From a virus (Duplodnaviria > Heunggongvirae > Uroviricota > Caudoviricetes), in IMG/VR virus record IMGVR_UViG_3300032156_000002, positions 9,023 through 73,022 of that record: 64,000 bases of DNA; one strand, given 5' to 3'. Below the pieces are notes generated by a model, which saw nothing but the letters and a program-made list of their open reading frames with translations, ran no database searches and was not told the origin of the DNA. The position numbers and the translations under genes were made by a program. The first letter of the stretch is position 1. The number at the start of each line of letters is the position of its first letter. Positions 4,974-39,858 of this stretch are shown here, one piece after another.

Positions 4974-5005
4974 CTATTGTACCACATGCGGAACACTTTG
5001 TCAAG
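4974..5005 (-). promoter_or_regulatory. Conserved sigma70-like promoter, family copy 1, firing leftward.
   Basis: Reverse complement reads cTTGACAaagtgttccgcatgTGGTACAATagg, with -35 TTGACA, a 17 nt spacer and an extended -10. Confidence 0.5.
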
Positions 5006-5048
5006 TTGAGCGAATCATCAGGGCCGGTTGCCCGGCCCCGATTCGACA

Positions 5049-5291
5049 TTATTTGCCCGTGAAGATTAGACTTGCGCTTGACCAGAACACATAGGCCCAC
5101 ACGGCCACGAGCGCGGCGTCGCCCACGATGAGGACCTTTTGCAGTGTGCGGCGAGCCTTGGCGTTGTCGTTCAAGGTCCCCGCCCTGAGTATGCACACGT
5201 CGTCCACGATGTGCCGCATGCCGATGACGACCATGAGCAAGGCGAAGATTATCAATGCCGCGCGAAGGATTTGCATAACCGATTCGGGCAT
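5049..5291 (-). CDS. Small membrane protein, 80 aa, 2 TM.
   Basis: Hydrophobic stretches LIIFALLMVVIGM and AALVAVWAYVFW. Confidence 0.45.
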   Translation of the reverse strand: MPESVMQILRAALIIFALLMVVIGMRHIVDDVCILRAGTLNDNAKARRTLQKVLIVGDAALVAVWAYVFWSSASLIFTGK

Positions 5292-5300
5292 ATCTCCTCC

Positions 5301-5663
5301 CTATAGTCTCTCGACCCGCGCAAGCCAATTCGCGATTTCGGTCGTGGTGATGAGCAGGTGGTCGCGGTGCGGTGCGATGAAGTGGAACTTGAAGTCGTGA
5401 TGATGCGCCCAGCACTGCGGCGTGGTGTCGCGAAAGTCCTCGCGGCTGGGTCGCTCGCCGAAGTAGTCGGCAAGAATGCTCAGAGCAAGGTCCGCCGGTC
5501 CGCTCCCGCCGTAACCCATCTCGAAGCCGGTCGGGCTGTGCCACACCACGTGGTACAGCGGCCGTCCGTCCACGGTCGCCAGAACCTCAGCGCCCTCGTG
5601 TCCGCGCCTCGCCTCGTATACTTTGTCAACCGGTTTGTCGTTCACGTTCCCTCCAATGCACAA
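5301..5663 (-). CDS. Hypothetical protein, 120 aa.
   Basis: ORF track. Conserved-looking WHSPTGFEMGYGGSGPADLA segment. Confidence 0.5.
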   Translation of the reverse strand: MCIGGNVNDKPVDKVYEARRGHEGAEVLATVDGRPLYHVVWHSPTGFEMGYGGSGPADLALSILADYFGERPSREDFRDTTPQCWAHHHDFKFHFIAPHRDHLLITTTEIANWLARVERL

Positions 5664-5738
5664 TTGCGGATAGTCACTAGGATAAACAGACCACCGGGGC
5701 GCGGCTACCGCACGGCCGCGCCCGGATGGAATGCTTTG

Positions 5739-6398
5739 TTACAGACCTCCGGCCCACGAACTGATGGTAGCGGTGAGACGGTCGAACTCAGGTGAGACCT
5801 TCTCGGCCCAGCGGGTGGCCGACTCCAACTTGGCCAGCCCGCCGTCTACATCGCCGTCCCCGACGAGGCCGATGGCGTCACGCAGGTCACGGACCGAGTT
5901 CTCCATGTAGGTCTGCGCGTTGTCCGCGTCATCACGGAAGCAGGTGGGTATGTTACTGCGGTTCGCCTGCACCCGGCGATAGATGGAGTCGGCTTCGTTG
6001 TACCAACCGGGCCAGTCGAAGTCGGCGGTCGAAGTGATGCGGTCCGTCAGTTGCGCGCCCTCGGTGAACAACGCGGCGCTGGTCTCTGCCCAATTCACGA
6101 TACTCTGCATTTCGCCGATGGTGCACCCGAACGGGCCGGTGGGCGCAGGCACGGCCGTTGGCGGTCGAGCCGTCGGCTTCGCCGCCTGTGCGGGTTTGGC
6201 CGTGGGGACCACCGTGACGTACACAATCTGAGGCTCGCCTTGCACGGACCCTGCGCCGGGGTCGGTGCGAACGATGAGCGCGGTCAACAGACAGATGACG
6301 GTCATCAGGCCGACGAAACCCACGGCCAGCGCGACCCACGCCCAACCCGGTAACTTGCTCTTGGTATTACCAATCCCGTTGCTCGGCATGCTGTTCAT
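5739..6398 (-). CDS. Membrane-anchored protein with an N-terminal TM helix and a Pro/Ala-rich linker.
   Basis: Start at the internal MNSMPSNG of ORF 5739..6527. Followed by WAWVALAVGFVGLMTVICLLTALIV. Confidence 0.5.
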   Translation of the reverse strand: MNSMPSNGIGNTKSKLPGWAWVALAVGFVGLMTVICLLTALIVRTDPGAGSVQGEPQIVYVTVVPTAKPAQAAKPTARPPTAVPAPTGPFGCTIGEMQSIVNWAETSAALFTEGAQLTDRITSTADFDWPGWYNEADSIYRRVQANRSNIPTCFRDDADNAQTYMENSVRDLRDAIGLVGDGDVDGGLAKLESATRWAEKVSPEFDRLTATISSWAGGL

Positions 6399-6426
6399 TG
6401 TTATCTCCTCGGCTGAATGCTCCCGC

Positions 6427-6720
6427 CTATCGGCGGGGCTTCTTGTCCGTGTGGATTGCCCACGGACCCTCGGCCACATGGCCGGGAACGAACCGTTGAC
6501 AGTTGCCGCACTTCTTGCCATGGGCATTGAGCGCCTGCGCCCACGTTCGATTGATGACGTACCCTCGCCCGCACATCGCGGGCAATGTCACGCGGCCCGG
6601 CAGGCCACTCGACTTCCGGTTGCTCCGCGTGCGGGCATCCGGCACGAGCGTCAGATGCAGATTGTGCTCGGTCTCGCCGTCGCCGACCCACTCGGCTTTC
6701 CCAAACTTGGTCTTGACCAT
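6427..6720 (-). CDS. Hypothetical Cys-rich 97 aa protein.
   Basis: ORF track. CGRG...CGNC pattern. Confidence 0.4.
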   Translation of the reverse strand: MVKTKFGKAEWVGDGETEHNLHLTLVPDARTRSNRKSSGLPGRVTLPAMCGRGYVINRTWAQALNAHGKKCGNCQRFVPGHVAEGPWAIHTDKKPRR

Positions 6721-6741
6721 CCCGCGCTCCTCTCAGTGCCT

Positions 6742-6772
6742 AATTATACCGCCTGCGGAACAGTTTGTCAAG
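6742..6772 (-). promoter_or_regulatory. Conserved promoter, family copy 2, firing leftward.
   Basis: Reverse complement reads cTTGACAaactgttccgcaggcGGTATAATtagg. Confidence 0.5.
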
Positions 6773-7028
6773 GGACGCCACAATAGTCCCGTTTTGCGCC
6801 TTCCTTGCGGAGTTGGATGGCGCGGGTCGCGGCCAGTTCCAGCGTTTGGTGCGCAGAGTCGCGCTTCCATGCCCTGTGATAGGCGACCTGCTTTGTCACG
6901 ACCCACCACCCGTGACCGCGGACGCTTTGGGGCGGCGAGTAGGTGATGGCCACGTTCGGAAAGCCGTAGCCTACTTGGATACGGGGCAACGAGTGTCTCA
7001 GTTTCATCAGTCGTTCAATCGCTGTCAT
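6768..7028 (-). CDS. Hypothetical 86 aa protein.
   Basis: ORF track. Confidence 0.4.
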   Translation of the reverse strand: MTAIERLMKLRHSLPRIQVGYGFPNVAITYSPPQSVRGHGWWVVTKQVAYHRAWKRDSAHQTLELAATRAIQLRKEGAKRDYCGVP

Positions 7029-11354: not shown

Positions 11355-11869
11355 ATTGGCCTCACTCTCTCAAGGTTGTGCCAGTCCCCGTTGCGGTCGC
11401 GCCACTGGGCGCGTATGACGCAAAGTTGGGTCACGTTGCGCCACCCGCGATGCCCGCGTACCTTGCGGGCCACCTGCCGGGCGGCGTCCAAAAGCGACGT
11501 GGCCTCGACCGGGTAGTAGCCCATGAGGCTCTTGACTTTGCCGTAGTCGTGGGCGTCATTGCGGGTGCCGACCGCCACGTACTGGACATGGAACTCGCAG
11601 GTCGGCGCATTGCGCATCAGGGCGGCGCACGGCTCACAGAAGTTGTCGGGGGCCTTCATAGACAGGCGCGCCTTGGGGATGCTCGGCTCGCCCACGAGCG
11701 TGCCGTGCGTGTCGCAGACCACCGCGTATTTCTCGCCCACGTCCAAGTCCTGCGCGGCGGCCACATAGATGACCACCTTGCCCGCAGTAAACGGATTGCG
11801 GCGCTCTGCGATGTAACCCGGTTCGGTGCTGTGTTGCTTGCGTGGATGAAGCGGGTCCTTGGGTTGCAT
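11351..11869 (-). CDS. Hypothetical protein with a start at the internal MQPKDPL.
   Basis: ORF 11351..11962. The upstream 31 codons are Arg-rich and overlap the next gene. Confidence 0.45.
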   Translation of the reverse strand: MQPKDPLHPRKQHSTEPGYIAERRNPFTAGKVVIYVAAAQDLDVGEKYAVVCDTHGTLVGEPSIPKARLSMKAPDNFCEPCAALMRNAPTCEFHVQYVAVGTRNDAHDYGKVKSLMGYYPVEATSLLDAARQVARKVRGHRGWRNVTQLCVIRAQWRDRNGDWHNLERVRPI

Positions 11870-12180
11870 CAGAGCACCTCTGCCTTGCTCGCCGTCACAT
11901 GACAGAGCGGGCAGTCCGGGTGCGCGGCGGCGTCGTCGTGCCACTCGTGATTGTCGGAGCATTGCTCGGTGCGCCCCTCGTGCTTGCAGGCATTGCCGCC
12001 GCAGAACATTCCGGTGTCGCCCATGTGCATGATGGGGGCTTCGTTGTCATCGGTGTCCGGCATCTCGCCCGACTCGAATAAGTACGTGACCGCGGCGAGC
12101 GTCCGGCGGCATTCGGGGCATAGGTCGGCATAGGTCTCGGGGGCAAGAAACTTGCGTGTAGTGCTCGGGGTATTCGTCAT
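11869..12180 (-). CDS. Cys/His-rich small protein with a start at MTNTPSTT.
   Basis: ORF 11869..12231 would overlap the promoter, so the internal Met with its RBS was chosen. CPECRR...CGGNACKHE...CPLCH. Confidence 0.45.
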   Translation of the reverse strand: MTNTPSTTRKFLAPETYADLCPECRRTLAAVTYLFESGEMPDTDDNEAPIMHMGDTGMFCGGNACKHEGRTEQCSDNHEWHDDAAAHPDCPLCHVTASKAEVL

Positions 12181-12232
12181 GGAGGTCTCCCATCGGAACG
12201 CCTGTCGGCGGGCGGTGCGTGCTTCCTTCATC

Positions 12233-12264
12233 TAATATACCGCGTGCGGAACAGTTTGTCAAGC
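12233..12264 (-). promoter_or_regulatory. Conserved promoter, family copy 3, firing leftward.
   Basis: Reverse complement reads gcTTGACAaactgttccgcacgcGGTATATTag. Confidence 0.5.
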
Positions 12265-12398
12265 CTAAGTTTCGACTTCGGAGGGCGAGTGACTTCGGCC
12301 TTGGTGCCTCGCGGACTGCCTCGGGTTGCGCAATCCCTTTGGCTTCCTGTCCCCTACGGGCCAAGCGCGCGAGTTGCGCCGCTCGCCCTCCACGCTCT

Positions 12399-12428
12399 TA
12401 TTATACCACGTGCGGAACACTTGTCAAG
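12399..12428 (-). promoter_or_regulatory. Conserved promoter, family copy 4, firing leftward, in tandem with copy 3.
   Basis: Reverse complement reads cgcTTGACAagtgttccgcacgTGGTATAATaag. Confidence 0.5.
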
Positions 12429-12624
12429 CGTCAATTGCCGGGCCGCCCGCCCATACGTCGGCGCTCGCCACAGGCCCGGCGGGGGGTCCACTCGGCGCAC
12501 TTTTGCCCATCTTGCCCTGTGCGCCCCGCTCCGGCCCGGCCCGTGCCCTTCTCTGGCACACTGGGGCGCTCCTGTCCGCCCCCCAAAAGACCCAAGTTTG
12601 ACCCAAGCGCCTCCCTGCGCGCAG

Positions 12625-12660
12625 TGTCGCTACACCTGTCGCTACACCTGTCGCGACAGA
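12625..12660. repeat. Tandem 12 bp direct repeat TGTCGCTACACC, 2.5 copies, a possible regulator-binding site in the divergent control region.
   Basis: tgtcgctacacctgtcgctacacctgtcgcgacag. Confidence 0.5.
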
Positions 12661-12714
12661 CTGGAATGCGCCGGTGCTTATTCAAGCCTCGGGCCTTTCG
12701 CTGGAATATGGCGA

Positions 12715-12746
12715 TTCTTATTCATCGTTCCGCTTGTGGTAGAATA
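12715..12746 (+). promoter_or_regulatory. Rightward promoter of the gmd operon, a degenerate member of the conserved family.
   Basis: ttattcatcgttccgcttgTGGTAGAAT with an extended -10. Its spacer resembles that of the other family copies. Confidence 0.35.
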
Positions 12747-12752
12747 GGGGCC

Positions 12753-15035
12753 ATGACCACTCTGCCCCTGCCACTGGACACGCCGGACCCGCGGCCCGAG
12801 CCGCCCGAGCAATGGAGTCAATCGTCGTGGGATGGCACGTTGCCAGACCGGCCAGCGCCCGCGCTGTCGCCCTACGGCGACTTGCCGAGCGACGGGGATA
12901 TTCAATCGGGCAAGGTGGTCCGCCGCGCGCTCATCACGGGCATTACTGGGCAGGACGGCTCGTATCTGGCGGAGCAACTCGTGGCTCGCGGCTACTTTGT
13001 GTACGGCCTCGTTCGCCGCACGTCACATCCCAACTACGAAAACCTGCGCGGCATTCTCACTAACCCCGACCCTTTCGTTCGCGGCCGCCTCACGCTCATT
13101 GCGGGTGATGTGACCGACCCGGCCAGCGTAAGCGGGGCGATGTGTGCCGTCCTTCCGCATGAGGTCTACAACCTTGCGGCCATGTCGTTCGTGGGCGCGT
13201 CGTGGGCGCAAGCCCGGCTCACGTTCGACGTGAACGCCATAGGCTTTCTCAATATCCTCGAGGCGGCCAAGGCGCAGATGGAGCGAGCGCGCAGGCAGGA
13301 CTATCTCAGCCTTACGGCTATCATTCCTGACCCGCGCGTGTATCAGGCCAGCACCTCCGAGATGTTCGGAAAGACAGCGCCGCCTCAGAACGAGGACAGT
13401 CGCCTCAGCCCGCGCAGTCCCTACGGCATCGCCAAACTCGCGGCGCACATGCTGGCGCGTGTCTACCGCGAGTCGTATGGGCTGTATGTCGCGAGTGGGA
13501 TACTTTTCAACCACGAATGTATCTCCGCCAAGACGCCTCTACTCATTCGCCAAGGGGGCACAATTCGGGCGGTCACGCCGTATGACCTTGTGCCCATCAA
13601 GGACAAGAGCAAGGGCAAAGCGAAACAGACATGGGCGTTGGCCGACACGCAAATTTGGGACGGCGACCAATGGGCCGACTTGCGGCACATCACCGCGACG
13701 GCATTGCGCACAGAGGACGCCAGCCACAGAATGCTTGAAGTGAATGCGCGTGGCGGAACAGTTGACGTGACGGCGAGTCATAACATGCTTGACGCCGAGG
13801 GCAATAAGATGCCCGCAGGGGCGATTCGGCACGGAACGCCTATGCCGCGCTTGCTACTTGCTACCCATTGGCCAACACCTTCGGGATGGGCGCGTGTCTC
13901 AGATGAACTAGCGGCATTCCTTGGGTACATGGTTGCCGATGGCTACATCGAGCGAGATGGCAACAAGATTCAGTATACGAAGAACGCCCGCTCTATGCGT
14001 GGGGAGGTGGCTGATTTATGGCATCGACTCTTCGGAGGGACATCGCGTGAGTGGGAGGGGAAATCCGGCTTCTCGACCGGCGGCCCGGTGACACAACTTG
14101 CTTTGACTGGCGTACCCGCCGTGGCCGCTTGGCTACGGGAAATGCTCTACTCTGGCGACCTCAAACAGGTGCCTCCGCTCATTCTGAATGCGACCGCAAG
14201 CGCACGACGTGCATTCCTTGACGCCTATTACGCAGGCGACGGCCTCAAGGCTGGCAACGGATTGTCATTCAAGACGAATAGCCCCGTACTTGCTCTTGGC
14301 CTTATCTACCTCTATGGACTTGAGGGCAATCGCGCATCGGTCTATGTCGAGCACCGCGAGGGCAAACGCTACTACGCCGTCAACCTCCGGTCCAACGACG
14401 CCATCGGCGAAAAAGGACAACATCTCGCGAAAGACCCGGCCGAGGTCATGTCTATCGGCGACGGCGAGCCGACGAACTGGGTATTTGACCTCGAGACATC
14501 CACGGGCAAGTTCATGGCGGGGGTGGGACGGATTGTTGTGGCAAACAGTCCTCGCCGCGGCCTTGAGTTCGTGACCCGCAAGATTGCGCGAGCGATTGCA
14601 CGAATCCAAGCGGGCCGCGAGCGCACCGTCGAACTGGGGGATACATCGGCCCAGCGCGACTGGGGATACGCGCCCGAATACACGGAGGCCATGCGGCTCA
14701 TTCTGCGCCACCGCCTGCCCGAAGATTTCGTCATCGGCACCGGCCAGACCCACAGCGTGCGCGAGTTCACCATCGCGGCTTTTTCCGAGGTGGGCTGTCG
14801 CGACCCGTGGCCCTACGTGATGACGCGCGGAACGCTTATGCGCCCCGCCGAGATTCCTGTGCTTCGTGCGGATTGTCAAAAGGCGAAGCGATTGCTTGGG
14901 TGGTCGCCGCACATCCTCATGCCAGACCTTGCGGCGCTCATGGTTCGCGCCGAGATGGACGCGCTCAATGCGCAACCGTTGGACCCGTTGCGTGTTGAAC
15001 TGACCGAATCAAAGAATCTCCCGCCCATTCAGTAG
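12753..15035 (+). CDS. gmd: GDP-mannose 4,6-dehydratase interrupted by an intein. There is a roughly 50 aa N-terminal extension; a GTG start nearer ITGITGQDG is also possible.
   Basis: ITGITGQDGSYLAEQL, GDVTD, YGIAKLAAH (the YxxxK SDR motif), LFNHE|C...VVAN|SPRRGLEFVTRKI and RDWGYAPEYTEAMRL are classic GMD blocks. Confidence 0.85.
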   Translation: MTTLPLPLDTPDPRPEPPEQWSQSSWDGTLPDRPAPALSPYGDLPSDGDIQSGKVVRRALITGITGQDGSYLAEQLVARGYFVYGLVRRTSHPNYENLRGILTNPDPFVRGRLTLIAGDVTDPASVSGAMCAVLPHEVYNLAAMSFVGASWAQARLTFDVNAIGFLNILEAAKAQMERARRQDYLSLTAIIPDPRVYQASTSEMFGKTAPPQNEDSRLSPRSPYGIAKLAAHMLARVYRESYGLYVASGILFNHECISAKTPLLIRQGGTIRAVTPYDLVPIKDKSKGKAKQTWALADTQIWDGDQWADLRHITATALRTEDASHRMLEVNARGGTVDVTASHNMLDAEGNKMPAGAIRHGTPMPRLLLATHWPTPSGWARVSDELAAFLGYMVADGYIERDGNKIQYTKNARSMRGEVADLWHRLFGGTSREWEGKSGFSTGGPVTQLALTGVPAVAAWLREMLYSGDLKQVPPLILNATASARRAFLDAYYAGDGLKAGNGLSFKTNSPVLALGLIYLYGLEGNRASVYVEHREGKRYYAVNLRSNDAIGEKGQHLAKDPAEVMSIGDGEPTNWVFDLETSTGKFMAGVGRIVVANSPRRGLEFVTRKIARAIARIQAGRERTVELGDTSAQRDWGYAPEYTEAMRLILRHRLPEDFVIGTGQTHSVREFTIAAFSEVGCRDPWPYVMTRGTLMRPAEIPVLRADCQKAKRLLGWSPHILMPDLAALMVRAEMDALNAQPLDPLRVELTESKNLPPIQ
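13518..14546 (+). mobile_element. Intein of 343 aa with a LAGLIDADG homing-endonuclease domain, inserted in the gmd NHE/SPRRG active-site region.
   Basis: Begins with Cys right after LFNHE and ends in ...VVAN followed by Ser+1. Two LAGLIDADG-like motifs, LAAFLGYMVADGYIERDG and FLDAYYAGDGLKAGNG. The extein junction reconstitutes the canonical NHESPRRGE. Confidence 0.8.
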
Positions 15036-15828: not shown

Positions 15829-16584
15829 TTGAAAGTCTCCGTCATACTCACGCTGTACGGGCGCGAGGTTGCCAGCCGCCGGGCGCTCGCGTGCCTGTTG
15901 CGCCAGACGCACCCGCCCGAGCAGATTGTCATTGTGGATGACGAGAATGGGGGTTGGGCTGAGGCCGAGGTCGCCAAGGACCCGCGCCTGCTCTACTTCC
16001 CGTTCAGGCCAAGGGGCGGAGCGTGGCGCGCGTGCAACCTCGCGGTCAATGCCGCATGGCCCAGTGTCACGGGCGATTACATCATTCTCACTTGTGGCGA
16101 TATGCTTGTGCCGACGTTCGCCGTCGAGCGCCATCTTGCCGCGCAGGTGGGCGACTTGCGCACGACGCCCACCGTCTACGGACTGGACGAAAACACAACG
16201 ATGCGGCTGGGCGTGCCCGCGGAGGACGAGCAGGGGCACTGGGCCTTGCCGGATTATCAAGACTGGGTAGACCACGAAAAGTTCAACAACCTGCCGGGCT
16301 TCTGGCAGTGGCCGAGCATATCAACCGCGCCGAACGAGGGTGTACTCAAGGCGGACGGGATTTGGTATGCGTCGGCAAAGGCGTGGCGGCATCACGTGTG
16401 GTTCAGCGGCAACACGCGCGCCGGGTGGGAGTTCTTTGGCCCGCCCCTGATTCCAAGCGACGACCTCGGCGCAGACGAACTGGGCATGCACAAGAACGAA
16501 TGTGGCTATCCCGGCGGACGCCGCCCGCTCACCGACTGCGGGTACGCCATCTATCACCAGTTCCACATACCGGGTGGCCGATGA
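15829..16584 (+). CDS. GT-A fold (GT2-like) glycosyltransferase, paralog 1 of 4, with a TTG start.
   Basis: KVSVILTLYGRE...LLRQTHPPEQIVIVDDENGG resembles the GT2 N-terminal signature. Shares WxGNTREGWE and YHQWH motifs with paralogs 2-4. Confidence 0.55.
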   Translation: MKVSVILTLYGREVASRRALACLLRQTHPPEQIVIVDDENGGWAEAEVAKDPRLLYFPFRPRGGAWRACNLAVNAAWPSVTGDYIILTCGDMLVPTFAVERHLAAQVGDLRTTPTVYGLDENTTMRLGVPAEDEQGHWALPDYQDWVDHEKFNNLPGFWQWPSISTAPNEGVLKADGIWYASAKAWRHHVWFSGNTRAGWEFFGPPLIPSDDLGADELGMHKNECGYPGGRRPLTDCGYAIYHQFHIPGGR

Positions 16585-17366
16585 AAGTCAGCGTCGTCAT
16601 GGCCGCGCGCTACCGTGCGTCCTCGGGGCCGCGTTGCCTCAAAGCCGTGCTTACCCAGTCGCGTCCGCCAGACGAGATTATCATGGTCAACTGCGGCGAG
16701 AACGAATGGGCCGCCCACATCAACAGCCCGCTTGTCGCCGCGGGTGGCCACAAAGTCGCGTTCAAGTACGTGCGCTACCATCCCGCCTCGCCCACGGAAT
16801 ACGCATACACGCGCGGGGTCAACAAGGCGTGGAATCGATGCACTGGCGACTACGTGTTTATCACTCCAACCGATGCACTGGCTCCCTTTCACTGTATCGA
16901 GGCGTCGCTCGCGGTCCAGACAGGCATGCACCGCGTGTGCCATCTCGTGTATGGGCTGGATGAAGGGACCACAAGGCGTCTGGATGACCCGCTATTCCGG
17001 TGGCTGGGTACAGACTTCGAGATTTTCCATACCCTGTCCGGCTTCAGCACGTGGTGGAGGCGCGGCTGGCCGCCGCCCAACAACAGCCCCTTGCAATTGC
17101 AGTGGTGGGGCAACACAGTGTTCAGTTCTAACACGCGCGAGGGTTGGGAGCAATACTGGCCGGGGCAACCCTTCAGCGATGACACGGTTACGGGCAACGA
17201 CGAGATATGCCTGAATATGATGGAGCACGGGGTGGACGTGCCGGACCGTCCTATCAGCGCACCCACGTGGCGCGAGATTACCAAATGTCCAGTTCCGGTC
17301 TATCATCAATGGCACTTGACCCAAGCCGAGGAAGATGCGGCCCACGCTCGCAAGAGGAAAGCCTGA
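16581..17366 (+). CDS. GT-A fold glycosyltransferase, paralog 2.
   Basis: Real gene is in a different frame from the artefactual 447 aa ORF 16023..17366. MKVSVVMAARYRASSGPRCLKAVLTQSRPPDEIIMVNCGENEW. Confidence 0.6.
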   Translation: MKVSVVMAARYRASSGPRCLKAVLTQSRPPDEIIMVNCGENEWAAHINSPLVAAGGHKVAFKYVRYHPASPTEYAYTRGVNKAWNRCTGDYVFITPTDALAPFHCIEASLAVQTGMHRVCHLVYGLDEGTTRRLDDPLFRWLGTDFEIFHTLSGFSTWWRRGWPPPNNSPLQLQWWGNTVFSSNTREGWEQYWPGQPFSDDTVTGNDEICLNMMEHGVDVPDRPISAPTWREITKCPVPVYHQWHLTQAEEDAAHARKRKA

Positions 17367-17369
17367 CCC

Positions 17370-18188
17370 GTGAAGATTAGCGTTGTCATGGCCGCGCGCT
17401 ATCGCTCCGACCATGGCCCGCGCTGTCTCAAGAGCGTGCTGTGGCAGACGCGCCCGCCCCACGAGATTATCATGGTTGACTGCGGCGAGAACGAGTGGGC
17501 GGCGGATATTGGGCCGACAGTGCGAGCCTTGAACGGGTCCGAGGTTGAATTCAAGCGCCATCGTTATGCACCGGCAAGCGTATATGAGTACGCTTACACG
17601 CACGGGGTGAATGCGGCATGGCCGAGGTGCACAGGCGACTACATTTTCATCACGACAACCGACGCGCTCGCGCCTGTGCGTTGTATCGAGGCGTCAATCG
17701 CCATGCAGGTCGGCACGTCGCGCGTGTGTCATCTATGCTATGGGCTAAACCGCGCGACAACAAACCGGCTCGATGACCCCGCCTTCCGCTGGGCAGGAAC
17801 CGACATGCGCCTTTTTCATTCCCTGCCGGGATTCGAGGACTGGTGGAAAGAGGGGCCACGCTGGCCTCATCCGAACAACAGCGTAATCCAACAGGCGTAC
17901 TGGAACCACACCCTGTTCACGAGCAACACGCGCGAGGGCTGGCTCGATTCGCCAGAGTGGCCGGACCTGCCATTCCCTACCCCCGAGTTCATAGCCCGTG
18001 ATACATGGTTTCTGGCCGCCACGGACGAGCGGAGCATGGCCTACCTCGAGGAGAGCGACTCGCTAATCAGGAAGTCCGGCGTTGGGAAGCGTCCGGTCAC
18101 GAAGTGCCCCATTCCGGTCTATCATCAGTGGCATCTTGAGGTCAAAGACGAGAATCGTTTGCACGGCTGGGTCGGCCGGGAGACTTGA
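17370..18188 (+). CDS. GT-A fold glycosyltransferase, paralog 3, with a GTG start.
   Basis: MKISVVMAARYRSDHGPRCLKSVLWQTRPPHEIIMVDCGENEW, about 60% identical to paralog 2. Confidence 0.6.
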   Translation: MKISVVMAARYRSDHGPRCLKSVLWQTRPPHEIIMVDCGENEWAADIGPTVRALNGSEVEFKRHRYAPASVYEYAYTHGVNAAWPRCTGDYIFITTTDALAPVRCIEASIAMQVGTSRVCHLCYGLNRATTNRLDDPAFRWAGTDMRLFHSLPGFEDWWKEGPRWPHPNNSVIQQAYWNHTLFTSNTREGWLDSPEWPDLPFPTPEFIARDTWFLAATDERSMAYLEESDSLIRKSGVGKRPVTKCPIPVYHQWHLEVKDENRLHGWVGRET

Positions 18189-18191
18189 GAC

Positions 18192-19007
18192 ATGGATGAC
18201 ATACGCAAAATGAAAGTGTCCGTCGTAATGGTCGGGCGCTACCGCGCAGAGAATGCGCGCCGCTGTCTGGCCGCGCTCCTCTGCCAGTCGGTCGTACCCG
18301 ACGAGATTGTCATGGCCGATGACGGCGGGAACGCATGGGCGCAGGCCATGCAAAGCCCACTGCCCGGCACGGAGATTGAGTTCAAGTACCACGGGTATCG
18401 CCCGCAGGGCGGCCCAGTGCACGCCTACACGCTCGCGGTCAATGCGGCGTGGCCCAAGGTGACGGGCGACTATGTTTTCATGTGCCCGACCGACATCATC
18501 GCGCCCTATCACGGGATAGAGGCATCGCTCGCTGTACAAGAGGGAACGCACCGAGTCTGCCACATTGTCTACGGCCTGAACGAGGCGATGACCGGGATGC
18601 TGGATGACCCGGCCTTCAAGTGGCTTGGCACGGACTTCGAGATTTTCAAAACCCTCCCCGGCTGGGGCGATGTGATTGGCGCGTCCCCGTTCAACAACGC
18701 GCGCGCCCATGGCTGGTGGCATCACACAATGTTCACGTCCAACACGCGCGAGGGCTGGGAGGAGTTCTGGCCGGGCAAGCCGTTCAGCGACAGCGACCAG
18801 TACGGCAATGACGAACTCTGCCTGTTCGAGATGGAACAGGCCGTCGGGGCGGCATTCAAGGCAGAGGGCGCGACCACGCCTCGCCGTCATCTGACGAAGT
18901 GCGACCTTCCGGTTTATCACCAGTGGCACTACAAGGCGGGCGTCGAGGAGAAGATGTACCGCGGCGAGATGAGTGAGCGAGCGATGCGTGCGTTGGGAGC
19001 ATCCTAG
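18192..19007 (+). CDS. GT-A fold glycosyltransferase, paralog 4.
   Basis: MKVSVVMVGRYRAENARRCLAALLCQSVVPDEIVMADDGGNAW. Same conserved C-terminal motifs. Confidence 0.6.
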   Translation: MDDIRKMKVSVVMVGRYRAENARRCLAALLCQSVVPDEIVMADDGGNAWAQAMQSPLPGTEIEFKYHGYRPQGGPVHAYTLAVNAAWPKVTGDYVFMCPTDIIAPYHGIEASLAVQEGTHRVCHIVYGLNEAMTGMLDDPAFKWLGTDFEIFKTLPGWGDVIGASPFNNARAHGWWHHTMFTSNTREGWEEFWPGKPFSDSDQYGNDELCLFEMEQAVGAAFKAEGATTPRRHLTKCDLPVYHQWHYKAGVEEKMYRGEMSERAMRALGAS

Positions 19008-22277: not shown

Positions 22278-22505
22278 ATGGACAGACTGCGCCACTGGCT
22301 CCTGAAACATTGGAACTGGAAGTACACCGGCGTGGGCGTCATCCTTGAGGTGAACGCCGGGCCGCACGGGGATTATCAATTGTGCCTGCGCCTATGGCCG
22401 CTGATGTGGGACTTGGACGCCTTCCGGTCCAGCGTCGTAGTGCCGTTTGTCTTGCACATTGGCCCGATTGAGGCGACGGTCGAGCGCCACGGCGACGAGT
22501 CTTGA
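22278..22505 (+). CDS. Hypothetical 75 aa protein.
   Basis: ORF track. Confidence 0.35.
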   Translation: MDRLRHWLLKHWNWKYTGVGVILEVNAGPHGDYQLCLRLWPLMWDLDAFRSSVVVPFVLHIGPIEATVERHGDES

Positions 22506-22535
22506 CATTGGTCCGCGGACGGTATACTATTGTCA
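22504..22535 (+). promoter_or_regulatory. Promoter-like element at the start of a roughly 770 bp non-coding region.
   Basis: cTTGACAttggtccgcggacggTATACTatt. The spacer resembles the ccgcacg family. Confidence 0.35.
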
Positions 22536-24703: not shown

Positions 24704-25266
24704 TGGACGCGAAGCCAAGTGGCGAAGTCTGTCAATCTTGTGGTCGTGCCTACGATACGGTTTATCACGTCCCCGACTCTGTGTGGGCACGACTGTTGCC
24801 CAACAAGGCACCGGCTGGCCTTCTCTGTATTCCATGTGCCATCCGCATTGCGGGAGAGAAAGGGATTGACTTGTGGTGGGATGCGGCGGAGAACGATTTT
24901 CCAACCGCCGCCCTCGAATCGCAGGTGGCGGAGGCGCTAGGCAGGGAGCAACTCGCTAACATCCGCGTCGAGGCCATGATGGATGGCATGCGCAAGACGG
25001 ACGCGCGACTCATGGATGCTCGCAGGATGCTCTCGGACGATTACAACATCATGGTCGCCATACACACCAAGCGGAGGGATGCCGAGCGCCAACTTTCGGA
25101 GATGCAGAATACGGCGAAAGAGAATGGTTGGATGAAGCGCATCCTGTTAGCCATGTCCCCGGCCTACTGGATGGGGTGGGTCGAGGGGCCTCACTATGCG
25201 ACAGGCGACTTCGACGAACTGGCATTCTTTCGCGCACTGCGGAATATCAATGCGGCAGGAGGTTGA
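24700..25266 (+). CDS. MMDAK-family small protein, 188 aa.
   Basis: Starts MMDAKPSGEVCQSCGRAY immediately after the conserved GGAGGGACATGATGGACGCGAAG junction. Confidence 0.5.
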   Translation: MMDAKPSGEVCQSCGRAYDTVYHVPDSVWARLLPNKAPAGLLCIPCAIRIAGEKGIDLWWDAAENDFPTAALESQVAEALGREQLANIRVEAMMDGMRKTDARLMDARRMLSDDYNIMVAIHTKRRDAERQLSEMQNTAKENGWMKRILLAMSPAYWMGWVEGPHYATGDFDELAFFRALRNINAAGG

Positions 25267-28533: not shown

Positions 28534-28689
28534 GGCTTTGTGTCGCGACACTTGTCTTGACACTTGTCGCGACATTGGCGTGTTTTGAGTGGACGCAAGA
28601 ATCTCGATTCGGCCTTTTTCAAGCGCATCGTGGCCGCGGGAGTGCATTTCGCCTTGACACGCCAAACGAATGACTGCTATTCTGCGGCC

Positions 28690-29733
28690 ATGATGCGTCC
28701 AATCAGACGGCACGAAACGCTCGCGGTCTGCTTGCTTGCGCTACTGTTGCTCGCGCTCGCGCTCGCGCAATCTGCCGTTGTGCCGGTCGAGACCACAGCG
28801 CCCGCGGCGCAGGTGCGGCCGACGCCCGCGGCTACCGAACTGCCCGCCCCGGCATTGTCAATCGCCCCGGCCATTGCGCCGCCGGTCGCGCCTTCGACAT
28901 GGCGGCCGCGCGCGCAAGTCCCCGCCCTGCCCGGCTCGGCCGATGACCCCTTCCTTCTGACCAACTTCGACATGCGTTTCGAACTCGGCGAGGATGATTC
29001 GAGTGTCTACAACGGTTACTACTGGGTGCTCGAAAAGGGGTCATGGATACCGGGCATGATTTCCAATCGCAGTTGGTTCCTTGCCAGCCCACAGCACACT
29101 ATCGGCGCGGCGACCTACTACGCCAATGGCGTCATGGAGGCAACGGCGCGGTCGCGCGGCATGAGTCTCAGCGGCTTTGTGGGCGGCGTATCTCTTATCA
29201 GTCCGGCCGACATCGGCCAGACTGTGTATCTGCGCAGACAGACCGAAGACTGGGAAGGTCCATTCCTCGTCGTGGACTGTGCGCGGCGTTCGGATATGTG
29301 GGGCGTTGTCTACTACCGCGGCGAAGTGGTCGAGGTAGATTTTCATACTGCCATTCGCTGGGGCATGGTCAATCCGACAACCTACAAGCGCATCTCCTAT
29401 CGCATGGACGGCGTGGAGGTGTGGAAGGGCAGACACCCGCCCGAGGACGGCGGCCAGCCACTAGACCTGCGCCAATACTGGATACCGCGAGTCGAGTGGG
29501 TATGGGGCTACGAAGCGCCGCCTCTCTACATGGGCGACGGCCAGTGGCGGCAACCCTATCGCCATGTTGTGGACGGCCTATGGGTCAATACCCCCTTCAT
29601 CGTGACGGACCCGGACACGGTGACGCCTCACCCTGTCGTACCCGGCCCGCTTACGCCCGGCGAGGTGTGTCTGCCCACAGACCGGGCGTGCGGCGAAGCG
29701 CGGGAGACTCTGATTCGCTGGGGGGTTTATTAG
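28690..29733 (+). CDS. Secreted protein, possibly a cell-wall hydrolase with a 3D/DPBB-like C-terminal segment.
   Basis: Signal peptide LAVCLLALLLLALALAQSA at the internal Met of ORF 28564..29733. VVDCARRSDMWG...GEVVEVDFHTA weakly resembles 3D-domain acidic motifs. Confidence 0.45.
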   Translation: MMRPIRRHETLAVCLLALLLLALALAQSAVVPVETTAPAAQVRPTPAATELPAPALSIAPAIAPPVAPSTWRPRAQVPALPGSADDPFLLTNFDMRFELGEDDSSVYNGYYWVLEKGSWIPGMISNRSWFLASPQHTIGAATYYANGVMEATARSRGMSLSGFVGGVSLISPADIGQTVYLRRQTEDWEGPFLVVDCARRSDMWGVVYYRGEVVEVDFHTAIRWGMVNPTTYKRISYRMDGVEVWKGRHPPEDGGQPLDLRQYWIPRVEWVWGYEAPPLYMGDGQWRQPYRHVVDGLWVNTPFIVTDPDTVTPHPVVPGPLTPGEVCLPTDRACGEARETLIRWGVY

Positions 29734-29750
29734 GCCACCCGTGGTATAAT
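29717..29750 (+). promoter_or_regulatory. Promoter-like element with an extended -10, a partial family member.
   Basis: ggtttattaggccacccgTGGTATAATtg. Weak -35. Confidence 0.3.
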
Positions 29751-29793: not shown

Positions 29794-30069
29794 ATGTTTT
29801 GGTCTAGACTCTGGCAAGTCCTCAATTCGTTCCTCATCGGCATTCTCATTCTCTTTTACTTCCTCATGGCTCTCTACTTGACCAGCCTGCTCGTGGTCCT
29901 GACGCCCACGTTGCGAGGCTGGGGTGCCGCGCTGAGTGCCATTGGCGCGTTCATCATGGCGATATGCGTTGCCGTCGTCTTTGTGGGCGTTGGCCATCTT
30001 TTCGCCATGGGCTGGAAAACCTCCGGCTGGAAGGCATCCTCGCCGCCGACACAGGAGAACGCGAAATGA
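29794..30069 (+). CDS. Small membrane protein with 2-3 TM, holin-like topology.
   Basis: LIGILILFYFLMALYLTSLLVVL and AIGAFIMAICVAVVFVGVGHLF. Confidence 0.45.
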   Translation: MFWSRLWQVLNSFLIGILILFYFLMALYLTSLLVVLTPTLRGWGAALSAIGAFIMAICVAVVFVGVGHLFAMGWKTSGWKASSPPTQENAK

Positions 30070-36270: not shown

Positions 36271-36279
36271 GGAGGACGT

Positions 36280-36621
36280 ATGGCTAAACCGATTACAATT
36301 ATCCCGGCAAGTGGTCAGATGGCCGCGTTCGCAAGCATGACCACGGGCAAGAAACCCGAGGCCGGAGTCGTCAGCATTCCTCTGGCATGCTTCGCCCTCG
36401 TCCAGTACGGCCCCGGCGAAAGCGAGCACGAGTTCGGCGTGGTCGGCTACGTGCTGGGCGAGGAGATATACTGCCCCGAGGGCGGTGACGACTTCCTCGG
36501 CTACCTTGGCACCGGCGAGGACGGAGTCGCGGTCTACGGCAAGGCATCCGAGGCCCGCATGGCCGAGAAACACTCTGCGCCCGTTGATGCCAAGGAAGCG
36601 GACGAGAGAGTTGACAAGTAG
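36280..36621 (+). CDS. Hypothetical protein, 113 aa.
   Basis: ORF track. Confidence 0.5.
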   Translation: MAKPITIIPASGQMAAFASMTTGKKPEAGVVSIPLACFALVQYGPGESEHEFGVVGYVLGEEIYCPEGGDDFLGYLGTGEDGVAVYGKASEARMAEKHSAPVDAKEADERVDK

Positions 36622-36638
36622 ACCGCCCGTGGTACAAT
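36611..36638 (+). promoter_or_regulatory. Conserved promoter, family copy, firing rightward.
   Basis: gTTGACAagtagaccgcccgTGGTACAATaa. Confidence 0.5.
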
Positions 36639-36728: not shown

Positions 36729-37151
36729 ATGGACCGACGCGATGACCTGAGTGTAAGCGATGACTTCGCCGCGGCTGTCCTTGCGACGGTCCTTCCCCAC
36801 GTAGGCTTTGACAATACCATAGGGCGCGCAGACCTGCTCACGCGATTGATGGCGCGCGGCTACACGACCGTAGACCTCGACCGCAAAATGCGCATTGCTA
36901 TCCATGACCTCCGCAACCAAGGGCACGACATCATTACCAATCCGGCGGGCGACGGCTACTGCATGGCGGGCAGTGCGGCCGAGGCGATTGCGTGGGCCGA
37001 GCACAAGATGCTCCCCAGCGCGCGTGATATGTTCCGCACGGTCAACGCCGTGATGCGGACCGTCCAACGCAAGTACCCGCTCAAGCAACTGGCGATGGAC
37101 AACATTCTGGCGGAAACTGGCCGACCGGGCCTGCCTACAATAGTTTCATAA
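36729..37151 (+). CDS. Hypothetical protein, 140 aa.
   Basis: ORF track. Lies downstream of the conserved promoter. Confidence 0.5.
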   Translation: MDRRDDLSVSDDFAAAVLATVLPHVGFDNTIGRADLLTRLMARGYTTVDLDRKMRIAIHDLRNQGHDIITNPAGDGYCMAGSAAEAIAWAEHKMLPSARDMFRTVNAVMRTVQRKYPLKQLAMDNILAETGRPGLPTIVS

Positions 37152-37165
37152 AGGAACCATAATAG

Positions 37166-37578: not shown

Positions 37579-37586
37579 GAGGCAAC

Positions 37587-37823: not shown

Positions 37824-37851
37824 CGCAAACATTTTCAATAGGAGATAGCAC

Positions 37852-38385
37852 ATGAAGCGAATAGCACTGATTGCCGCATTGCTCGTACTGATGGTTGGCT
37901 GTCTGCCTTCGCCAGTGCTCGTGGCCACGCCGAATGTCGTGGTCATCACGTCGCCGCCCATCGAGGTGACGCGGGAGGTACAAGTCACGCGCGTGGTCCC
38001 GGCGACCCCGCTCCCGGCGACCGTCGCGCCGACCGTCCTTCCGACCTACATGGCGACCGAGCCGGTCGTGCAATTCACCGACATCACATGGACGCGCGAC
38101 GCGAAGGTTCCTCGTATCTGCATCAATCAGGGCGTCGCCTTCAAAATGGTTCTCGAAGGCAAGCCGGGGCTGGATGTGGTTTATCACATCAACCACTATG
38201 ACGGCGCGGGCGTCAAGACCTATCGTAGCAAGGACTTCGCAGGCACCATCGAAGCCGACGGCAAGTTGGTCAAGTCCTTCCAAGAGTCGTTCACGTATCA
38301 GAGCAAGTGGCGCGTGCAACTGGTCATCACGTGGCCGCTTCCGCTGGTCACGCGGAACGCAAGCATCACTGTGGACTGCAACTAG
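37852..38385 (+). CDS. Lipoprotein.
   Basis: MKRIALIAALLVLMVGC gives a signal peptide with an L-M-V-G-C lipobox. Confidence 0.6.
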   Translation: MKRIALIAALLVLMVGCLPSPVLVATPNVVVITSPPIEVTREVQVTRVVPATPLPATVAPTVLPTYMATEPVVQFTDITWTRDAKVPRICINQGVAFKMVLEGKPGLDVVYHINHYDGAGVKTYRSKDFAGTIEADGKLVKSFQESFTYQSKWRVQLVITWPLPLVTRNASITVDCN

Positions 38386-38692
38386 GAAGCGCCTCACGGC
38401 GCAATGCAACTGACTTTGGCTCCGGGTCTCGTCAAACAGGCCCGGAGCACATGGGGCCGAGGGCGCGCTTCGGCGCAAGGGACTACTGTCCCTCACGGTA
38501 GGCACTCGACCCCAGTATGACCGGGCTGGGCGCAAACGGCGACGGCTCTCGTAGCATGTTACGAGGTAAAGACGCCGGACGGTCGCTCCGATAAGCGCCC
38601 GGCCCGAGGGGCTAGGTAGGAGTCGCCTAACGAGCGACTCCGGTGGTCGCCTTGCGACCTAAGCCGCGCGAGCGGGGGAGCCTAGCCCCTAC

Positions 38693-38776
38693 GGAGAGAT
38701 AGCCAAGCGGCGAAGGCACCCGTCTGATACGCGGGTGGGCGTAAGCCCCTCGGGCGTTCGAATCGTCCTCTCTCCA
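38693..38776 (+). tRNA. Class-II tRNA-like gene with a long variable arm, a Ser-type acceptor and D arm, and a predicted anticodon GAU.
   Basis: Cloverleaf reads GGAGAGA-TA-GCC-AAGCGGCGAA-GGC-A-CCCGT-CTGATAC-GCGGG-[TGGGCGTAAGCCCCTC]-GGGCG-TTCGAAT-CGTCC-TCTCTCC-A. T-loop TTCGAAT, G18G19, U33, 7/7 acceptor pairs, 84 nt. Confidence 0.5.
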
Positions 38777-38918
38777 CTAGCGGGGCGGCAAATCCAAAGG
38801 CTGGCGTGGGTGATGATTGTCGGGGTGAGGGGAACACTCAATCCCGGCACAAGCGGCGGTGGCCGCCGTCTCGGGGTGAGGCCACAAGAACGCCAACCTT
38901 GCCGCCCCGCTTTCTGAT

Positions 38919-38947
38919 TTGACAAACTATTCCGCACGTGGTATGAT
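38919..38947 (+). promoter_or_regulatory. Conserved promoter, family copy, firing rightward.
   Basis: tTTGACAaactattccgcacgTGGTATGATagg. Confidence 0.5.
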
Positions 38948-38983
38948 AGGGATGCTCACAGACTAGCGAGCGGAGGTGATGCG

Positions 38984-39547
38984 ATGAACGAGGTCCTTGA
39001 GAACACAATCACCCCGTGCGATTCGGCAAGCCGAGTTATTGCCAATTTCTATGTGCAACTCGGGCGCGATGACTGGGAGAATGCGCGCCGCATTGGCATC
39101 GAGCGCAGGGACCGCGACCGGGAGGAGGGTATCGTGGAACTCGCCACTCACCCGGAGATTTGTCTCGACCCCGACGAAACAGCCACCAACTACGGCGCGG
39201 AGATGGCGGCGGCGATGTGGCTCAAGGTGCCATTCGACGAGAACACCGACCCGCGCAAAGCCCTGAAGTTCGACCTGCTGTTTCGTGGCCTGAAGATTGA
39301 CGTGAAGCGTCCGCACGTTCGGGCCAAGGCGCTGTCCATTCCGCCACACACGCGCGACGGCTGGTGCGACATCTACTTGGTTGTCCAGTGCGTCGGCCGC
39401 CGCTACAAGGTAACGGGGTGGATGCGGGCGGCGGAGGCGCGGACAGAGAAATACTGGAACGATGGTTGCGCGAAGCCGTGCTGGCAGGTTCCGTTCGGGG
39501 ACCTGCGCGACCCGATTGACCTGCTCCTCGCGGAGGGACTGCCATGA
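38984..39547 (+). CDS. Hypothetical protein, 187 aa, with a possible PD-(D/E)XK-like motif.
   Basis: FDLLFRGLKIDVKRP fits D...(D/E)xK. Weak. Confidence 0.45.
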   Translation: MNEVLENTITPCDSASRVIANFYVQLGRDDWENARRIGIERRDRDREEGIVELATHPEICLDPDETATNYGAEMAAAMWLKVPFDENTDPRKALKFDLLFRGLKIDVKRPHVRAKALSIPPHTRDGWCDIYLVVQCVGRRYKVTGWMRAAEARTEKYWNDGCAKPCWQVPFGDLRDPIDLLLAEGLP

Positions 39548-39834
39548 AGCAACCCGACGGCGGCATGCGCATCACAGCGGTTTCCGTGCTCGCGCTTATG
39601 GCCATCGGCCTAACCTCCGTGCTCGCCGCGCTCAACTTTGCGGGGATTATCAATGTGTCGTGGTGGGTCGTTACCGCGCCGGTGTGGATTATCCCCGTCA
39701 TCACCGTCGCGCTCGTCCTCGTTTCCCTCACACTCCTCGGCCCCGACATTATCAAAACCTACCGTTCCGAGAGCGCCTACAGGCGGTCAATTCGTCAGAA
39801 GATTGCCGAATTCCTGCGTCGTCCCAAGCCTTGA
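39544..39834 (+). CDS. Membrane protein, 96 aa, 2 TM.
   Basis: Hydrophobic helices. Confidence 0.45.
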   Translation: MKQPDGGMRITAVSVLALMAIGLTSVLAALNFAGIINVSWWVVTAPVWIIPVITVALVLVSLTLLGPDIIKTYRSESAYRRSIRQKIAEFLRRPKP

Positions 39835-39858
39835 CAACTATTCCGCCTGTGGTATAAT
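39831..39858 (+). promoter_or_regulatory. Conserved promoter, family copy, firing rightward.
   Basis: cTTGACAactattccgcctgTGGTATAATaagg. Confidence 0.5.

Follow-up and report, generated by a model that had tools for sequence, protein, structure and literature searches.

Strong promoters with a conserved spacer dyad in a tailed-phage genome, and a candidate HTH_17 regulator

Why should strong promoters that lie tens of kilobases apart in a phage genome share, in addition to their hexamers, the sequence that lies between them? The question is raised by a stretch of 64,000 nucleotides (here called the window; positions 9,023 to 73,022 of IMG/VR virus record IMGVR_UViG_3300032156_000002, class Caudoviricetes), for which an initial annotation made from the sequence alone had described a family of promoters with a common spacer, and had suggested that this spacer might contain an overlapping operator for a phage or host regulator, or else be read by a phage-specific sigma factor or appropriator. 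The evidence collected here centres on a 14-bp dyad, TTCC-N6-GGTA, and on balance, if with some reserve, it leads us to favour the view that the promoters are dispersed promoter-operator units under the control of the phage's own HTH_17 protein, encoded at 1569-1865.

The promoter family and its shared spacer

In a scan of positions 1-60000 for sigma70-type promoters, scored out of 12, exactly seven sites reached a score of 11 or more, and all of them belong to the one family. The initial annotation had located each of the seven correctly, and they are as follows.

4976..5004, minus strand: P1, TTGACAAAGTGTTCCGCATGTGGTACAAT; 17-bp spacer; dyad TTCC-GCATGT-GGTA; score 11/12, with TG at -15/-14; drives gene 4297-4902 and the genes beyond it
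6743..6771, minus strand: P2, TTGACAAACTGTTCCGCAGGCGGTATAAT; 17-bp spacer; score 12/12; drives gene 6427-6720
12234..12262, minus strand: P3, TTGACAAACTGTTCCGCACGCGGTATATT; score 11/12; the proximal of two tandem leftward promoters; heads the leftward operon, from gene 11869-12180 onward
12400..12427, minus strand: P4, TTGACAAGTGTTCCGCACGTGGTATAAT; 16-bp spacer; score 12/12, with TG; the distal tandem leftward promoter
38919..38947, plus strand: P5, TTGACAAACTATTCCGCACGTGGTATGAT; directly after a tRNA gene; drives gene 38984-39547
39831..39858, plus strand: P6, TTGACAACTATTCCGCCTGTGGTATAAT; 16-bp spacer; score 12/12; drives gene 39894-40295 and the small genes that follow as far as about 44.2 kb
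36611..36638, plus strand: P7, TTGACAAGTAGACCGCCCGTGGTACAAT; 16-bp spacer; score 11/12, with TG; drives gene 36729-37151

The description of these promoters as having a canonical -35 and an extended -10 is borne out: TTGACA is exact in all seven, the spacers are of 16 bp (P4, P6 and P7) or 17 bp (P1, P2, P3 and P5), the -10 hexamers are TATAAT, TACAAT, TATGAT or TATATT, and at -15/-14 there is TG in five copies and CG in the other two (P2 and P3), leaving the G at -14 invariant. The estimate of at least 8-10 near-identical copies was too generous. Six of them read TTGACAA-N3/4-TTCCGC-NN-GYGGTA-YAAT; the seventh, P7, has diverged in the spacer, with GACCGCCC where the others have GTTCCGCA and a left arm of GACC instead of TTCC, and the remaining candidates are degenerate. 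A search with the 29-base consensus, allowing up to three mismatches, gave 4 matches where 0.00 were expected; P4 and P6 differ from that consensus in having a spacer one base shorter (16 bp), which brings the near-identical set to six, while a regular expression for the extended -10, run over the whole window, produced no further strong member. All seven strong copies are intergenic, point the same way as the next gene and are accompanied by Shine-Dalgarno sequences; the 5' untranslated regions would be of roughly 16-90 nt, with transcription from P4 running on through P3. The genes that they serve form two blocks of small proteins of no assigned function, from 12.2 to 3.4 kb and from 36.7 to 44.2 kb (Pfam and PHROGs searches with the ten genes directly 3' of the promoters assigned none), an arrangement that fits early genes without amounting to proof of it.

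Similarity among the copies runs from the -35 through the -10 and ends there, the flanks being unrelated. Over positions -27 to -17 of the spacer the mean pairwise identity is 0.74, as against 0.26 ± 0.03 for random 11-mers (0/20,000 as high), so that in a computed alignment the spacer is indeed conserved beyond chance. The claim of a shared spacer stands for the pattern and not for the literal decamer that had been quoted, GTTCCGCACG, which is not above chance level (15 hits, with 9.8 expected); the copy of it at 37031 was considered as a member of the family and rejected as an intragenic chance match.

When the promoters are aligned on the -10, their invariant part proves to be TTCC-N6-GGTA, a stretch of 14 bp at about -24 to -11, whose GGTA arm is made up of the G at -14, the G at -13 and the TA with which the -10 hexamer begins. 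Conservation is specific to position, TTCC, the G at -16 and GGTA being fixed while the central bases vary. In the promoters with 16-bp spacers the absent base falls between the -35 and TTCC, which means that the dyad is locked to the -10 and not to the -35. There are seven exact occurrences of TTCCGCNNGYGGTA, at P1-P6 and at a rightward promoter (12728), none of them within a gene; the degenerate members retain CC-N6-GGTA (with left arms GACC, TGCC, GGCC and GTCC), so that a single genome repeats the same site at its promoters in seven exact and four degenerate copies. The relaxed form TTCC-N6-GG[AT]A gives 12 hits where 3.2 would be expected. No exact intragenic copy of the "stoperator" kind was found, and hits with two mismatches inside genes are at chance level. 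The possibility that the dyad acts as an RNA hairpin was ruled out, since its central loop would be only 2 nt and it cannot therefore fold in that way.

That RNA polymerase does not need TTCC is indicated, if indirectly, by promoters of the same phage that lie just to the left of the window (in a segment here called L069), which combine TTGACT or TTGACG with a 17-bp spacer and GTGGTAGAAT, and have other spacer sequences, in line with the earlier remark that conservation of the spacer is dispensable for sigma70 recognition. From a comparison of the two kinds of promoter, GTGGTA looks like a general feature of promoters in this system, and TTCC like something specific to one class of them.

Relatives of the phage provide a further view of the same element. 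Where nucleotide identity is 70-84% or protein identity 73-77%, orthologous promoters keep 25-26 of the 29 core bases while their flanks have diverged. In L066, a relative of the former kind, the ortholog of P1 retains 26/29, as compared with only 10 of the 40 nt downstream; in L072 and L073, which are of the latter kind, P5 retains 26/29 in each and P6 25-26/29, the sequence of P6 there being TTCCCCACGTGGTA, with the outer TTCC and GGTA kept and an inner G lost. P2 is absent from L066, where the flanking genes abut, the window having an extra gene (6768-7028) together with P2. For the promoter of the HTH_17 gene the orthologs read TGCCGCCTGTGGTACAAT in L066 and L067 and TGCCGCGGGTGGTACAAT in L068. 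Farther afield, promoters with TTCC-N6-GGTA occur also at L001/L003, L024 and L018, which share with the window only a distant homologue of its dehydratase (52% and 48% identical) or of RlaP (66%). The first of these, L001/L003, is a 102.7-kb IMG/VR contig with the 52% identical dehydratase and three copies of the promoter, including a tandem leftward pair; in L003 the repeat continues past the -10 into the 5' untranslated region.

Besides the strong promoters the window has four weaker sites in which the spacer is partly retained but a usable -35 is lacking.

12715..12745, plus strand: rightward weak promoter; exact dyad TTCCGCTTGTGGTA at 12728-12741; -10 TAGAAT; no -35
1872..1900, minus strand: promoter of the HTH_17 gene, CCAAGCATGCCGACTGTGGTACAAT; degenerate dyad TGCC-N6-GGTA; no -35
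29717..29750, plus strand: degenerate member, GGCC-ACCCGT-GGTATAAT; no -35; upstream of gene 29794-30069
22502..22530, plus strand: doubtful member, TTGACATTGGTCCGCGGACGGTATACT, GTCC-N6-GGTA; TTGACA; score 10/12

Three of these (given as 12715, 22504 and 29717) had been listed as degenerate relatives, which is right as regards a partly shared spacer and -10, except that at 12715 and 29717 there is no -35. The site at 1872-1900, where the -35 is likewise absent, had been missed, and came to light through the extended -10 scan and a repeat finder. The doubtful member has a spacer of only 15 bp in the register of the dyad, and no convincing gene lies downstream of it. The ATG of the GDP-mannose 4,6-dehydratase gene (12753) is only 7 nt past the -10 of the 12715 promoter, and that of the HTH_17 gene (1865) only 6 nt past the -10 of the 1872-1900 promoter, so that both transcripts are likely to be leaderless. 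One more match to TTCC-N6-GGTA, TTCCTGCACTGGTATGCT at 48207-48225, is found between the terminase gene and that of an 808-residue protein, and has a poor -10 and no -35.

A candidate regulator and its association with the dyad

If the dyad is an operator, the protein most obviously in view is one that the initial annotation had already singled out as a candidate helix-turn-helix (HTH) protein.

1569..1865, minus strand: candidate regulator, 98 residues, HTH_17/excisionase family, with a C-terminal KPRKTGHP tail

Its HTH_17 domain occupies residues 26-74 and is accompanied by the basic tail, with no effector domain and no coiled-coil dimerisation domain; the scores are 39.6 bits against PF12728 (cutoff 27) and 29.4 bits, as against 28.8, for TIGR01764. 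It is the only HTH that Pfam detects among 91 window proteins, a set from which four proteins of more than 700 residues were excluded (two of these were searched separately and gave no recombinase match). A search for integrase or recombinase domains was negative both for the 91 and for the 7.4 kb to the left of the gene. Profile searches of the PDB gave Pukovnik Xis (4j2n, E = 5e-6), RdfS, RacA, P2 Cox, MerR and BldC, the entries including 8dgl, 4lhf and 6ama/6amk; for the subfamily with the KPRKxGRP tail they yielded no close solved homologue, and a weak hit described as "DafA" (E = 0.04-0.08) provided no lead in the literature.

The association between this kind of protein and the dyad emerges from scans that used the promoter pattern alone, without any information about proteins. 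The metagenome scan returned 36 loci, and the pattern scans recovered six other lineages (a phage family named MWW for its accession prefixes, together with L002, L040, L017, L019 and L080) in which a gene of the HTH_17 subfamily is the first or an early gene after a promoter bearing the motif. The candidate is the window's member of this rare subfamily, which co-occurs with the motif across unrelated lineages.

The MWW family comprises 15 contigs across the metagenome and genome scans (L008, L009, L021, L025-L028, L030-L034, L037, L041 and L047), of 52-58% GC, one of which (L047) was binned with a metagenome-assembled genome (MAG) of Pyrinomonadaceae (Acidobacteriota). In every member two promoters face away from each other, a strong one, TTGACAATCCTTTCCGCGTGCGGTAAAAT, and a weak one, TTGATTATTTTnnCCGCGTGCGGTAAAGT, and the ATG of an HTH_17 protein of about 90 residues follows 7-8 bases after the -10 of the latter. 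The control region, of about 100 bp, contains three dyads, one in the spacer of each promoter and a third upstream of the strong -35, where it reads TTCC-N6-GGAA or TTCC-N6-GGTA and lies outside any spacer. In L032 two sites have TTGCAA at their centre (TTCC-TTGCAA-GGTA and TTCC-TTGCAA-GGAA) with the outer tetramers unchanged; these tetramers lie one helical turn apart, as would be expected of a site bound by a dimer. About 1 kb beyond the leaderless HTH_17 gene the MWW phages also carry a two-domain HTH_17 paralogue.

A subfamily profile, built from the MWW proteins, the window protein and homologues, found members downstream of the motif at four further, unrelated loci: in L002 (38% GC) the HTH_17 gene is leaderless, in L040 it is the first gene after the promoter, and in L017 and L019 it is the third gene of the operon. 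At L080, which came from a looser scan, the subfamily gene's own promoter is TTGACAAAATTTTCCAACCTCGGTATCCT. Members of the subfamily have in common the recognition-helix residues S-x-R-R-V/I-R and a tail of the form F-x-x-K-P-R/K-K/P-x-G-x-P, which across lineages would fit a common operator core. Among the 43 non-redundant loci other than MWW (239 kb), all four subfamily hits lie on the same strand within 1 kb downstream of the motif, a zone that makes up 7.6% of the strand-space (P about 3e-5 for 4/4), and in 1.04 Mb of control phage contigs, chosen with permuted patterns, the profile gave 0 hits.

Not all searches were as productive. The promoter scan of a genome collection gave 21 hits, one per genome and mostly in Clostridia MAGs, with no member of the HTH subfamily nearby, and these were treated as chance matches with the exception of L047, the MWW member. 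Proteins of the MWW type are absent from IMG/VR. A search in the reverse direction, from loci of the HTH subfamily to the dyad, found only one IMG/VR locus, L074.

How the dyad may work, and what else it might be

The case for an operator is that the dyad is in fixed register with the -10, that it is conserved while its flanks have diverged and that other promoters of the phage are without it; together with the co-occurrence of the HTH_17 subfamily, this supports that part of the initial annotation which proposed an overlapping operator for a phage regulator. Each unit would then be a strong promoter for the housekeeping sigma factor (TTGACA, 16-17 bp, an extended -10 of T/C-G-G, and TAYAAT), which host RNA polymerase should be able to use unaided, given consensus hexamers at optimal spacing. 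The 1569-1865 protein would bind the dyad, probably as a dimer, and since a protein at -24 to -11 would lie over the extended -10 and reach into the -10 from its upstream side, repression is the most likely effect: the bound protein would compete with sigma for both elements, and all seven strong promoters of the two small-gene blocks could be shut down in one step. We infer that the HTH_17 protein is probably a repressor and that the genes under its control would be early ones. The degenerate site at the regulator's own leaderless promoter would provide for autoregulation, and a version of the site without a -35 lies at the rightward dehydratase promoter also; at promoters that have no -35 the protein may even play an activating role.

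Such a scheme has partial counterparts. Dispersed operators that overlap promoters are familiar from the C1 operators of phage P1 and from the gp71 promoter sites of mycobacteriophages L5 and Bxb1. There, as here, one short site recurs at many promoters over tens of kilobases and a single phage protein can govern many transcription units. However, the sites of P1 (17 bp) and of L5 (13-14 bp) lack symmetry whereas that of the window phage is a dyad, their regulators are large proteins of the C1 or gp71 type whereas the present candidate is a 98-residue excisionase-like protein, and L5 has many intragenic "stoperators" whereas exact sites in the window phage occur only at promoters. Repression of promoters by excisionase-like proteins is established. 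P2 Cox, 186 Apl, RdfS and BldC belong to the winged-helix superfamily in which profile hits place the 1569-1865 protein, as does the MerR-family protein D29 Gp36, which represses both early and late genes of a lytic phage (PMC12266134). In contrast to the single 14-bp inverted repeat found in the spacer here, the targets of Cox, Apl, BldC and Gp36 are direct repeats in arrays; the subfamily of the window protein has a KPRKxGRP tail of its own, and no integrase was found near the window gene. Promoters regulated by MerR resemble the present ones in having a dyad operator within the spacer, and a DNA-binding fold like that of MerR is predicted for the candidate, but MerR spacers are over-long (19-20 bp), the regulator realigning the hexamers, and MerR regulators have an effector-binding domain. 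With optimal spacers of 16-17 bp, consensus hexamers and no effector domain in the 1569-1865 protein, repression is likelier than activation in the MerR style. The lambda operators OR1-3 find their closest parallel in the MWW family, where a divergent pair of promoters, one of them serving the leaderless regulator gene, has three dyads in some 100 bp; the lambda operators are clustered, whereas the sites of the window phage are single and dispersed over seven or more promoters, and the regulator is of a different family.

Several observations weigh against regulation by the HTH_17 protein. Its gene is separated by 3-10 kb from the nearest strong promoters and has at its own promoter no more than a degenerate site (TGCC); upstream of the sole window-type homologue in IMG/VR (L074) the element is missing; no HTH_17 subfamily gene was seen in the short stretches examined of L001/L003, L018 and L024; and an AlphaFold2 model of the protein was too poor for a fold search (pLDDT, a predicted local confidence score, of 57). 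As to the site, its right arm, GTGGTA, occurs also in promoters without TTCC; it may be that polymerase alone dictates this arm and that the symmetry of the dyad is in part coincidental. Moreover, consensus promoters in IMG/VR show no excess of TTCC at its fixed position: the pattern TTGACAA-N4/5-TTCC-N4-G-N-GGTA-NN-AT gave 33 hits and three patterns with a permuted left arm gave 58, 26 and 25. The dyad module is on this evidence not widespread, and the idea of TTCC as a general promoter feature was dropped.

Some of these points would sit more easily with an operator bound by a protein of another kind (a different phage regulator, an unrecognised small protein or a host factor), which we regard as unlikely, if a little less so than the next alternative. 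The degenerate site at the HTH_17 gene and the L074 protein that lacks an element both lean that way, most window proteins have no detectable family, and L069, beside the window, holds three further DNA-binding genes, so that an XRE-type HTH_31 protein, a GerE/LuxR-type protein and a 491-residue Myb-like protein might be put forward as binders. Yet no L069 regulator recurs beside the motif, while the HTH_17 subfamily does so in seven lineages including that of the window; the XRE gene has a different promoter spacer of its own, which it has in common with a divergent SSB promoter; and the single hits per genome in the genome-collection scan are not suggestive of a host regulon. It is also conceivable, and to our minds fairly improbable, that no regulator is involved at all, the spacer being an intrinsic determinant of strength or shape for host RNA polymerase (through sigma region 3 or the beta-prime zipper) and the promoters simply copying a host-optimal one. 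That the spacer sequence matters for sigma70 is known (PMC3130263), and such an effect would accord with the fixed register of the dyad and with a right arm that is the extended -10 present in every promoter of this phage. It accords less well with the promoters of the same phage that read TTGAC(T/G)-17-GTGGTAGAAT and have no TTCC, with the MWW dyad upstream of the -35, where contact as a spacer is impossible, or with the lack of enrichment in IMG/VR already described, and it leaves the link with the HTH_17 subfamily unexplained.

The two remaining explanations carry much less weight. If the spacer had no function and the promoters were cassettes copied recently, through duplication or through recombination at module boundaries, and too young to have diverged, one could understand why P2 coincides exactly with a gene-sized insertion or deletion relative to L066 and why the repeat in L003 continues beyond the -10; but orthologous copies are conserved amid non-coding DNA at near-random identity, the core is common to distant relatives and to unrelated lineages, and conservation picks out particular positions, all of which makes recent copying very improbable. 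Lowest of all, and hardly to be credited, is a reading of the spacer by a phage sigma factor or by a sigma appropriator in the manner of T4 MotA/AsiA, which the initial annotation had offered as one option and for which conservation of the spacer, as a general observation, is the sole support. In the T4 system a phage-specific box replaces the -35, whereas here the -35 and -10 are canonical and optimally spaced, and the 91 window proteins include no sigma-like or known appropriator domain, although small proteins without a family could still supply one.

The surrounding genome and the possible significance of the module

The region at 12.2-12.75 kb had been described as a 520-bp control region in which tandem leftward promoters face a rightward one. 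The arrangement is as described, while the size is in fact 572 bp (12181-12752), the distance from P4 to the rightward promoter being about 290 bp. To judge from this layout, a hub for early-gene regulation is a plausible prediction, and in the distant relative L003 the tandem leftward promoters likewise face a rightward GDP-mannose dehydratase gene. Gene 11869-12180, which opens the leftward operon, matched only itself in a homologue search, which yielded no close relative in which to compare the region. The 12-bp tandem repeat that had been noticed in the region is real.

12625..12658, plus strand: 12-bp tandem repeat, TGTCGCTACACC in 2.8 copies, ending in the palindrome TGTCGCGACA; within the divergent control region

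It would probably be the site of some factor other than that of the promoter family. The 10-bp palindrome has four exact copies (12649-12658, 28541-28550, 28565-28574 and 48490-48499), with 10 hits against 3.5 expected when up to one mismatch is allowed, and two of the copies flank a TTGACA in the 51-bp gap 5' of gene 28585-29733; it is possibly a second operator, for another regulator. As RNA, the control region folds no better than its shuffles (z = -1.2). The leader between P4 and P3 (12263-12399, minus strand) can form one long hairpin, GGAGGGCGAGC...CTCGCCCTCC, of -61 kcal/mol, a marginal result in that z is -2.0 and 8 of 200 shuffles are equally stable. Just 5' of P1, at 5020-5045 on the minus strand, is a GC-rich hairpin, GGGGCCGGGCAACCGGCCCC, conserved in L066 (6967-6995), which looks like a terminator without a T-run that would isolate P1 from the operon upstream. 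Another divergent control region lies about 4 kb to the left of the window start (L069, approximately 5520-5615). Its two promoters have a spacer in common that is unlike the one described above, and read TTGACTTACTGAACAGGATGTGGTAGAAT for the SSB operon and TTGACGCGGATGGCCGGACCGTGGTAGAAT for the leaderless gene of the XRE-type HTH_31 protein; L066 keeps both of them.

The window as a whole has a GC content of 62% along its entire length and comes from a contig of about 96 kb. Megablast of 15 kb of it against 50,697 phage records gave no nucleotide match, and its terminase is at most 38% identical to those of isolated phages; the gene calls match public calls on near-identical metagenome contigs (JGI 3300031707, SRR9617952 and ERZ27247707). 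Leftward genes run from 12180 to 1259 and rightward genes from 12753 on, with the terminase at 46.6 kb and very large, structural-looking proteins from 48.3 kb. The first of the rightward genes has an unusual structure.

12753-15035, plus strand: GDP-mannose 4,6-dehydratase gene, interrupted by an insert of about 340 residues with a LAGLIDADG domain

The insert has the look of an intein. In L003 the homologue (about 333 residues) runs without a break, that in L024 is cut off at the end of the locus, and the window protein has in addition an N-terminal, proline-rich extension of 57 residues. A GIY-YIG/NUMOD3 homing-endonuclease-like gene (2667-3344, minus strand), containing 51-nt tandem repeats at 2728-3084, is placed between the RlaP gene and the block of small genes. 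Repetition is found elsewhere too: at 15829-19007 there are four tandem paralogous genes (products of about 250-270 residues) with DNA repeats at 789-840-nt spacing; small paralogous genes at 24691-24716 and 42001-43606 have near-identical ribosome-binding-site and start regions, GGGAGGGACATGATGGACGCGAAG, in four copies, as well as internal repeats of 33-93 nt; and a repeat of 59-103 nt, in some ten copies between 52508 and 63446, encodes a Gly-rich motif (roughly GGPGSGHFGHxGRPGxVGGS) distributed across a 1939-residue open reading frame and the three or four large ones that follow. The single tRNA gene that precedes P5 (38693-38777, 85 nt, with a long variable arm) is assigned by ARAGORN to Ile-GAT. 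On its 5' side (region 38612-38777) is an element of about 80 nt whose ends, GGGGCTAGG...CCTAGCCCC, are complementary over a long range and which is kept in L072 and L073, the latter apparently having two tRNA-like units; Rfam recognised the tRNA only and gave no match for the element.

As to what all this may mean, it is a tentative proposal, which we would put forward rather than press, that the dyad and its presumed reader make up a regulatory module of uncultivated phages not previously described, in which a rare HTH_17 subfamily with a KPRKxGRP tail binds TTCC-N6-GG(T/A)A, serving in some phages as a three-operator switch and in the present one, where it would have spread to seven or more promoters, for a genome-wide shut-off of early genes. 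If this is true, the pairing of operator and regulator would be portable across very different hosts, given that the phages concerned range from 38% to 62% GC, and a regulatory role would fall to a subfamily of proteins usually annotated "excisionase". The parts would be compact and independent of the host, namely a 29-bp promoter with its operator and a regulator of about 60-100 residues, and might lend themselves to use as a synthetic switch. More generally, searches of metagenomes with a promoter pattern can match an operator to its regulator without recourse to annotation. For the phage itself the regulon would embrace some 50 small genes in two blocks, which would provide a start in sorting early genes from late ones in a phage that has no cultured relative.

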